DNA of 64,000 nt, from NCBI GenBank assembly GCA_024233495.1, contig JACKPM010000003.1, forward strand, positions 231,331 through 295,330, given 5' to 3'. Numbering within the stretch: the stretch's first letter is position 1; each line of letters begins with the position of its first letter. Position numbers and translations under genes: made by a program. The notes below the pieces were generated by a model that was given only the letters and a program-made list of their open reading frames with translations, was not told where the DNA came from and made no database searches. The stretch is from Chlamydiales bacterium. Lineage in GTDB: Bacteria; Chlamydiota; Chlamydiia; Chlamydiales; JAAKFR01. Shown here in pieces: positions 25,768-26,380 of this stretch.

Positions 25768-26380
25768 TTTAGCAAGCTTTAGTAAAACCAAACTATATGC
25801 GGGGAAGCCCTCAAAAACTTTTAGTACTCGTCACTTCAGTGGCAGTAAAAATCTAAAAGACAGGGGGGTAATCCGCAGGAAAGACCAAAAGATTAATTTT
25901 GGAATCCTCAGAGACTATACGTTTGGAGTTTGTTATGCAGTTAGAAACACAATGGATTGTTGGTTTTATAGATGGTGAAGGTTGTTTTCGCATAGCGATT
26001 AATCGCGATGAGGAGATGACTTTAGGATTTCAGGTTTTACCTGAGTTCACTGTTGTCCAACATGAGAGAGATATTCAAATCTTATACGCTTTGAAAAAGC
26101 ATTTTGGTTGTGGAGTGGTTCGCAAGAATCAAGACAGTCGAATTGCCTATCAAGTGAAGAGTTTTGATCATCTTAGGGATGTAATTGTCCCATTTTTTGA
26201 GAAGCACGAGCTTAAAACTAAAAGGCGCGTGGATTTTCAAAAGTTTCGAAAAGTCCTTCTCCTTATGGAGAGAGGCAAGCATTTGACTCAAGAGGGCCTT
26301 GAAGAGATTCAGGGCATTAAGGAGCAAATGAACAAGCTAAGATAGAGTCCGACTCTTGTGGAAACACAAGAGAGCAATCG
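25768..26380 (+). mobile_element. Group I intron in 23S rRNA, at the I-CeuI-type homing site
   Basis: The insertion lies between ...taactataacggtcctaaggt and agcgaaattcc... The 5' exon ends in T, the intron ends in G, and a GAAA-tetraloop hairpin ctcttgtg-gaaa-cacaagag lies at 26353-26372. The intron carries a LAGLIDADG ORF. Confidence 0.85.
25935..26345 (+). CDS. LAGLIDADG homing endonuclease (single-motif, I-CeuI/I-CreI-like), intron-encoded
   Basis: MQLETQWIVGFIDGEGCFRIAINRD... contains one LAGLIDADG motif (IVGFIDGEGCF). The track ORF starts at 25899; ATG 25935 gives the usual short spacing before the motif. Length is 136-148 aa. Confidence 0.8.
   Translation: MQLETQWIVGFIDGEGCFRIAINRDEEMTLGFQVLPEFTVVQHERDIQILYALKKHFGCGVVRKNQDSRIAYQVKSFDHLRDVIVPFFEKHELKTKRRVDFQKFRKVLLLMERGKHLTQEGLEEIQGIKEQMNKLR

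Follow-up and report, generated by a model that had tools for sequence, protein, structure and literature searches.

The DNA analysed here, referred to below as the window, is a stretch of 64,000 nucleotides from the genome of an uncultured member of the Chlamydiales. It contains a full-length 23S rRNA gene on the plus strand (23785..27337; RF02541, 2706.7 bits). This gene is the host of a group I intron of 613 nt, located on the same strand at positions 25768..26380, which was identified by its match to RF00028, by mapping of its position and by reading of its flanks. The 5′ exon ends with ...GGTCCTAAGGT at 25767 and the 3′ exon restarts with AGCGAAATTCC at 26381, and from these two exon ends follows the insert length of 613 nt. 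Read over a longer distance, the exon runs as ...AACGGTCCTAAGGT up to 25767 and is followed by the intron, TTTAGCAAGC ... GAGCAATCG (25768-26380). The last base of the 5′ exon is a U and the last base of the intron is a G. Because a shift by one base in either direction fails to rebuild the 23S sequence, the boundary is unique.

To locate the insertion in the 23S rRNA, a 71-nt query of the ligated exons was used, which gave a perfect match to the E. coli 23S genes. When the last exon base was mapped on the annotated E. coli 23S gene, the insertion was found to lie after nucleotide 1931, the site designated L1931. An earlier, sequence-only reading of this DNA had described a 613-nt insertion that splits the 23S gene, with an exon-final U, an intron-final G and a GAAA-capped hairpin 8 nt from the 3′ splice site, and all of these are borne out by the sequence. 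The same reading had placed the insertion inside an I-CeuI-type homing site. The insertion is indeed within the I-CeuI recognition sequence, but the cognate class is L1931, the I-CpaI target site, and the I-CeuI label has to be dropped. The intron of I-CeuI itself (Ce.LSU.5) is inserted at what we take to be 23S position 1923, 8 nt upstream of 1931, whereas the insertion studied here is at 1931. In addition, the I-CeuI-type sequence that had been quoted consists of 27 letters and not of the 26 claimed.

The 23S exon stretch was found once in the assembly of the window (G000; 1.72 Mb in 27 contigs, 91% complete), in agreement with the earlier mention of a single 23S gene, and the number of group I introns in this assembly is likewise one. 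The rRNA operon is embedded in a 303-kb contig, which fits with a single rRNA operon.

Group I core and its conservation

Searching the whole window with RF00028 gave a match at 25735-26371 that covers model positions 1-253, with a score of 58.2 bits (gathering score, 50; E 3.5e-12). The match is far above chance level, and with a full-length match above the cut-off the proposed group I intron at 23S position 1931 is confirmed. Helices were placed by hand from the Rfam alignment and the sequence, and the resulting 71 hand-drawn pairs were tested on an alignment of 21 L1931 introns. The sequence-only reading had allowed for the case that no group I core can be modelled; instead, the core helices P1, P3-P9 and P9.0 could all be placed, and P2 is absent. 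All elements described below are on the plus strand.

P1 (25761..25782) is formed by the exon sequence CUAAGGU (25761-25767) and the guide GCUUUAG (25776-25782). Its seven pairs are formed in 100% of the cells of the 21 introns, including the wobble U25767-G25776 at the 5′ splice site, where U-G is invariant in the 21 introns. The loop L1 (25768-25775) contains a candidate P10 strand, UAGCA (25770..25774), in which three of five positions pair with AGCGA of the 3′ exon (26381-26385). The 5′ strand of P3, CCAAAC (25788..25793), has its partner GUUUGG at 25921-25926, with 99% of cells paired and double-sided changes in three pairs.

The P4-P5 domain (25798..25877) showed an invariant P4 in the structure test and double-sided changes in P5a and P5b. 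P4 consists of UGCGGG (25798-25803) and UCCGCA (25872-25877) and is followed by J4/5, GAAG (25804-25807), and by P5, in which CCCUC (25808-25812) faces GGGGG (25864-25868). In P5a, CUUUUAG (25818-25824) and CUAAAAG (25853-25859) form seven pairs with double-sided changes, and four more such pairs are found in the P5b hairpin (25830-25843). The extended P5 also harbours an A-rich bulge, AGUAAAAAU (25844-25852). P6 and P6a form a short hairpin (25878..25907; GGA/UCC and CCAAAA/UUUUGG) in which all six P6a pairs covary.

The 5′ strand of P7 (25911..25916) comprises G25911, the bulged A25912 and GACU, and it pairs with AGUCC at 26346-26350; four of these pairs are invariant. The pair G25913-C26349, beside the bulged A25912, would be the guanosine-binding site, as in canonical group I introns. 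P8 is built from AGUUUGUU (25927..25934) and AACAAGCU (26331-26338), with 97.6% of cells paired and five double-sided pairs. The 3′ strand of P8 is directly followed by J8/7 (26339-26345), the two together spanning 26331..26345; J8/7 reads AAGAUAG, as it does in 15 of the 21 introns. The next segment (26346..26352) consists of the 3′ strand of P7 and the 5′ strand of P9.0, GA (26351-26352). P9 (26353..26372) is a hairpin of 8 bp, CUCUUGUG-GAAA-CACAAGAG, with its tetraloop at 26361-26364 and seven double-sided pairs, and it ends 8 nt from the 3′ splice site. The remaining 3′ tail of 8 nt, AGCAAUCG (26373..26380), provides the 3′ strand of P9.0 (U26378 and C26379) and the terminal omega-G, G26380, which is present in 21 of 21 introns. 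According to PMC1995217, L1931 introns are IC1-like, lack P2 and have a complex P5. The anatomy found here agrees with that description, both in its missing P2 and in its complex P5.

The open reading frame fills the P8 loop and its last 15 nt double as core, which leaves a ribozyme of 217 nt: 167 nt on the 5′ side of the open reading frame and 50 nt at the 3′ end. These last 15 nt, which are the 3′ strand of P8 and J8/7, comprise the final four sense codons of the frame plus its TAG stop codon. The sequence-only reading had allotted just ~166-200 nt to the ribozyme, unless core and open reading frame overlap, and had called the core unusually small. The overlap exists (15 nt), but the core is complete with 217 nt, and its size is not unusual, since relatives are equally compact (L015, 613 nt; L003, 616 nt; L025, 619 nt). 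Intron lengths in the set range from 613 to 873 nt. In the Simkania clade, the extra non-coding length is mainly a P6 extension of ~55 nt, and an extension of P6 by ~55-60 nt is shared by this clade and L023. Three introns carry large, lineage-specific insertions in peripheral elements: L019 (873 nt) has a stretch of 378 nt ahead of its open reading frame, L007:2754-3452 (698 nt) has ~75 nt inserted in P5b, and L023 (719 nt) has additional sequence in L1 and P6.

Over the whole alignment, standard pairs were formed in 91.9% of the cells, compared with 26-50% when the partners were slid by 1-3 columns. Double-sided, that is compensatory, changes were observed in 36 pairs, and the observed values were reached in 0 of 500 shuffles. 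A group I core from P3 to P9, including the P3/P7 pseudoknot, is present here with support from covariation. P9.0 also covaries, as it is GA/UC in chlamydiae and GG/CC in four non-chlamydial introns. In the window, J3/4, J6/7, J8/7, P7, P9.0 and the omega-G all correspond to the family consensus. We also considered the A/G at the fifth position of P7 as a defect of this copy; this was rejected, as A/G is the family consensus and occurs in 17 of the 21 introns.

When the window was compared with L003, the closest relative found, 50 pairs were identical, five differed on one side, eight showed compensatory changes and none was broken in the window. The two introns are 83% identical in the 5′ part of the ribozyme and 59% identical at third positions of the open reading frame. 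The compensatory changes, together with this difference in identity, show that the RNA fold has been under selection on the lineage of the window.

We then screened for changes private to this copy, using the ribozyme columns that have the same base in 19 or 20 of the 20 other introns. Only three such conserved places differ in the window, in L1, P10 and J4/5. The change in L1 comprises position 25769 and a deletion of 1 nt. At 25774, U is replaced by A, and the P10 pair adjoining the 3′ splice site is lost (U-A in the 20 others, A/A in the window). At 25804, the first nucleotide of J4/5, the window has a G where the 20 other introns have an A. All three changes are within elements that handle the splice sites. 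However, P10 is often dispensable where P9.0 and the omega-G are intact, and a G opposite an A in J4/5 may still make a sheared pair. For these two reasons, the three private changes may be regarded as possible modulators of splicing rather than as lesions.

The endonuclease gene within the P8 loop

The P8 loop is occupied by a LAGLIDADG homing endonuclease gene of 136 codons plus stop (25935..26345, plus strand), recognised by its match to PF00961 (LAGLIDADG_1; E 5.9e-25, 88.6 bits against a cut-off of 23.1). The size and motif given earlier for this open reading frame, 411-447 nt with one LAGLIDADG motif, are correct: it measures 411 nt from the ATG at 25935 and 447 nt from a TTG at 25899, and ends in both cases at 26345. 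We consider the ATG at 25935 to be the real start, because all relatives share the ATG column and the chlamydial ones have conserved both this ATG and a GGAG Shine-Dalgarno sequence 7 nt upstream of it (25924..25927, plus strand). The GGAG overlaps the 3′ strand of P3 and the first part of the 5′ strand of P8. The TTG start, which would give a protein of 148 aa, was rejected, as the extension is not conserved, unlike the ATG and the GGAG. This extension (25899-25934) crosses P6, P7, P3 and P8, and gene callers may annotate the 148-aa version.

The motif reads IVGFIDGEG, and the acidic residue E15 is kept. In comparisons with the PDB, the whole 136-aa protein aligned with each half of the I-SmaMI/I-OnuI-type enzymes (E 6e-54), and residues 1-133 aligned with the single-domain protein 5gkk of 170 aa (E 6.5e-50). 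A literature search on PDB entry 5GKK found nothing relevant, and a search on I-CpaI found mentions of I-CpaII only. Compared with L003, the gene of the window has a dN/dS ratio of 0.11, which equals the low values of other pairs, at a dS that is near saturation. Judged by its sequence, purifying selection acts on an intact endonuclease gene, and the reading frame is open in all 22 related ORFs.

In the protein tree, the protein of the window is sister to that of L003 (support 94/96), on a branch of 0.37 as against 0.11 for L003. It carries seven private substitutions at residues that are conserved in at least 85% of the other proteins, and three of these (H66Q, R73Q and R75K) are found in one conserved block. 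Related proteins form 2,662 clusters at E <= 1e-10 and are typically 138 aa long. Look-ups of the exact 136-aa and 148-aa products showed that neither is on record. A marine eukaryote transcriptome (MMETSP) contains one related protein, P0011 (149 aa, 68% identical), whose origin could be an organelle or else a chlamydial symbiont. This record is derived from RNA and thereby shows that transcripts include intron ORF regions of this kind.

Four members of the Simkania clade (L024, L026, L027 and L029) have a motif without the acidic residue (DGRG, DGSG or DAVG), as seen in columns ~390-400 of alignment A2. Three of the four also lack six codons. Their reading frames are open and their ribozyme helices are intact, and the proteins look like endonucleases in decay or retained for another role.

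Distribution of the L1931 intron

Homologous introns were gathered by a protein search, which returned copies from a Chlamydiales MAG, Thermoanaerobaculia, Gemmatimonadales, Peribacteria and Spirochaetales and, among 401 genomes sampled from the phylum of the window, from 20 more. In total, the gene was found in 22 of the 401 sampled chlamydial genomes and an empty junction in 138, the rest being without a scorable 23S gene. From the 22 genomes with the gene and the 138 with an empty site, it follows that ~13% of the scorable chlamydial genomes carry the intron. The intron-bearing genomes belong to at least five family-level groups (f1, f6, f8, f9 and f10). Within f1, the family of the window, the intron is present in G000, G037, G042, G047 and G252 and is missing from G087, G147 and G241. 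The only other genome of the same genus, G056, is a MAG that lacks any 23S gene, so that the absence of the endonuclease gene from it carries no information.

Beyond the chlamydiae, Acidobacteriota, Gemmatimonadota, Spirochaetota and CPR have the same intron. The f1 copies are not monophyletic in the protein tree, and non-chlamydial copies are interspersed among them, with weak support. The distribution is patchy across families and phyla, and a homing element that was repeatedly gained and lost fits this pattern. The L1931 family has already been described in Simkania, Thermotoga, cyanobacteria, CPR bacteria and organelles. Within the chlamydiae, the intron has been stated to be confined to the Simkaniaceae (PMC6019428); its presence in at least five family-level groups corrects this statement.

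G037 at first sight contains both an intron-plus and an intron-minus allele, which would speak for a dead endonuclease. This was rejected: the second 23S gene (L096, G037:C13:16500-21025), which has an empty L1931 site, is only ~80% identical to that of the main rRNA operon of G037 and is for this reason assigned to another organism, most likely a foreign one that was binned into this MAG.

Further group I introns were observed next to the L1931 intron in some of the relatives. In G170 and G077, two chlamydial genomes of another family than that of the window (group f9 g45), the L1931 intron is preceded at a distance of only ~10 nt by a second group I intron, which is ~210-230 nt long and without an ORF (L017:1102-1310, with the L1931 intron at 1321-1944, and L021:2101-2330 on the minus strand). 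These tandem introns recall the paired introns of the Coxiella 23S gene. In both Peribacteria 23S genes, the L1931 intron is followed ~180 nt downstream by another group I intron (L006:3628-3938 and L008:3632-3952; RF00028, 59.9 and 66.2 bits).

Splicing, homing and known counterparts

Taken as a whole, the element is very probably a mobile L1931 group I intron, made up of a compact ribozyme of 217 nt with a homing-endonuclease gene in its P8 loop. It belongs to a known, widespread family and is ordinary among its members. We infer that this copy splices and that its endonuclease is active. The intron would be transcribed within the rRNA precursor, and the end of the exon, CUAAGGU, would be paired to the internal guide GCUUUAG. 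The attack after U1931, at the U-G wobble, would come from an exogenous guanosine that is bound in P7. G26380 would then take the place of the guanosine in P7, set by P9.0 and a weak P10, and ligation of the exons would yield a normal 23S rRNA. A homodimer of the 136-aa single-motif LAGLIDADG protein would cut intron-less 23S genes at the L1931 site, and repair would copy the intron into the cut gene, which is the process of homing. Metagenome scans for the organism-specific ligated or intron-less junction and for the window-specific 5′ junction gave no match.

It is possible, although we think it rather unlikely, that the ribozyme splices but that the protein no longer cleaves DNA and persists as a maturase, or has not yet decayed. 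This explanation overlaps with that of a mobile intron and differs from it only in the present job of the protein. The LAGLIDADG protein of a Thermotoga 23S intron has been reported to have maturase-like activity (PMC3984707). The seven private changes at conserved residues and the long branch of the window protein point in the same direction, as do the several relatives in the Simkania clade that have lost the acidic residue, yet have open frames and conserved ribozymes. Moreover, a single-copy target in an intracellular bacterium offers few chances for homing. On the other hand, the window protein has kept the acidic residue of the motif (GFIDGEG) and its dN/dS of 0.11 is as low as that of other pairs. 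The patchy distribution also argues for a continuing mobility of the family.

A second explanation is that the intron is retained, so that the mature 50S subunit contains the 613-nt insertion in domain IV of the 23S rRNA and the ribosome tolerates it. The homologous intron of Simkania was reported to be unspliced (Everett 1999, as cited in PMC1995217 and PMC6019428), which is the one precedent that speaks against splicing, and the private changes of the window in L1, P10 and J4/5 could be read in the same sense. With a single-copy gene, the outcome would bear on every ribosome. If retention were true, the only 23S rRNA of this organism would carry an insertion of ~600 nt beside the subunit-interface helices in working ribosomes, perhaps as in many other intron-bearing chlamydiae, and the ribozyme fold would have to be conserved for a reason other than splicing. 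However, there is no obvious reason for an RNA that is never spliced to keep a ribozyme. All helices of the window are intact, with the eight compensatory changes having occurred since the split from L003, and the 5′ part of the ribozyme has stayed far more similar to that of L003 than the third positions of the ORF (83% versus 59%). P7, J8/7, P9.0 and the omega-G are invariant or covarying. The Simkania clade itself has 13 pairs with double-sided changes, and 94.6% of its cells are paired, which sits uneasily with the 1999 report as cited in these papers. The intact core and its compensatory evolution, including that in the Simkania clade, favour a functioning ribozyme, and we regard retention as improbable.

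That the insert is excised without ligation to leave a fragmented 23S rRNA, as is the case for IVS elements processed by RNase III, is highly improbable: fragmented 23S rRNAs do exist in other bacteria (PMC2801512), but the insert has a full group I architecture without the long stem typical of an IVS, and it is located at a classical intron site and not in helix 25 or helix 45.

As a mobile L1931 intron, the element has close counterparts. The significance of the finding is accordingly small, as it adds one more intron-plus-endonuclease element to a described family. The closest relative, L003 (identical to L011; from a Chlamydiales MAG, JAJACK010000001.1), has an intron of 616 nt with the same layout, its endonuclease is 74% identical and its host belongs to the same family as that of the window. 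Unlike the window, L003 keeps the consensus in L1, P10 and J4/5, and the fifth position of P7 is A-U in L003 and A/G in the window.

The homology to the intron of Simkania negevensis, which had been named in the sequence-only reading, could be substantiated: L028, a locus assigned to the genus Simkania, comprises a 658-nt intron with a 143-aa endonuclease, as given in Table 1 of PMC1995217, and can be aligned end to end with the intron of the window. The two share the insertion site, the ribozyme architecture, the single-motif LAGLIDADG ORF in the P8 loop and the host phylum, and their endonucleases are 57% identical. They differ in length (658 versus 613 nt), the Simkania intron having the P6 extension of ~55 nt, and in host family (f8 for Simkania, f1 for the window). 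The Simkania ORF ends 3 nt short of the end of the intron. Its protein is more decayed than that of the window, with 14 private changes and a deletion of 6 aa compared to seven changes.

The introns of Simkania, Thermotoga and Synechococcus share the site L1931 (PMC1995217, Table 1). Judged by their description in the same paper, those of Thermotoga and Synechococcus also resemble the window in having a single-motif LAGLIDADG protein and an ORF that overlaps the core, but both their length (666-700 nt) and that of their endonucleases (162-167 aa) are greater. The Thermotoga L1931 introns were reported to be actively self-splicing (Nesbo and Doolittle 2003, as cited in PMC1995217). The insertion point of the Simkania intron has been called the I-CpaI target site (PMC6019428). 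The chloroplast LSU endonucleases I-CpaI and I-CeuI target the same invariant 23S stretch. The best relatives with solved structures for the protein of the window are I-OnuI/I-SmaMI and PDB 5gkk. The I-OnuI-type enzymes are monomers of two fused domains from fungal mitochondria, whereas the protein of the window has a single domain and is expected to dimerise.
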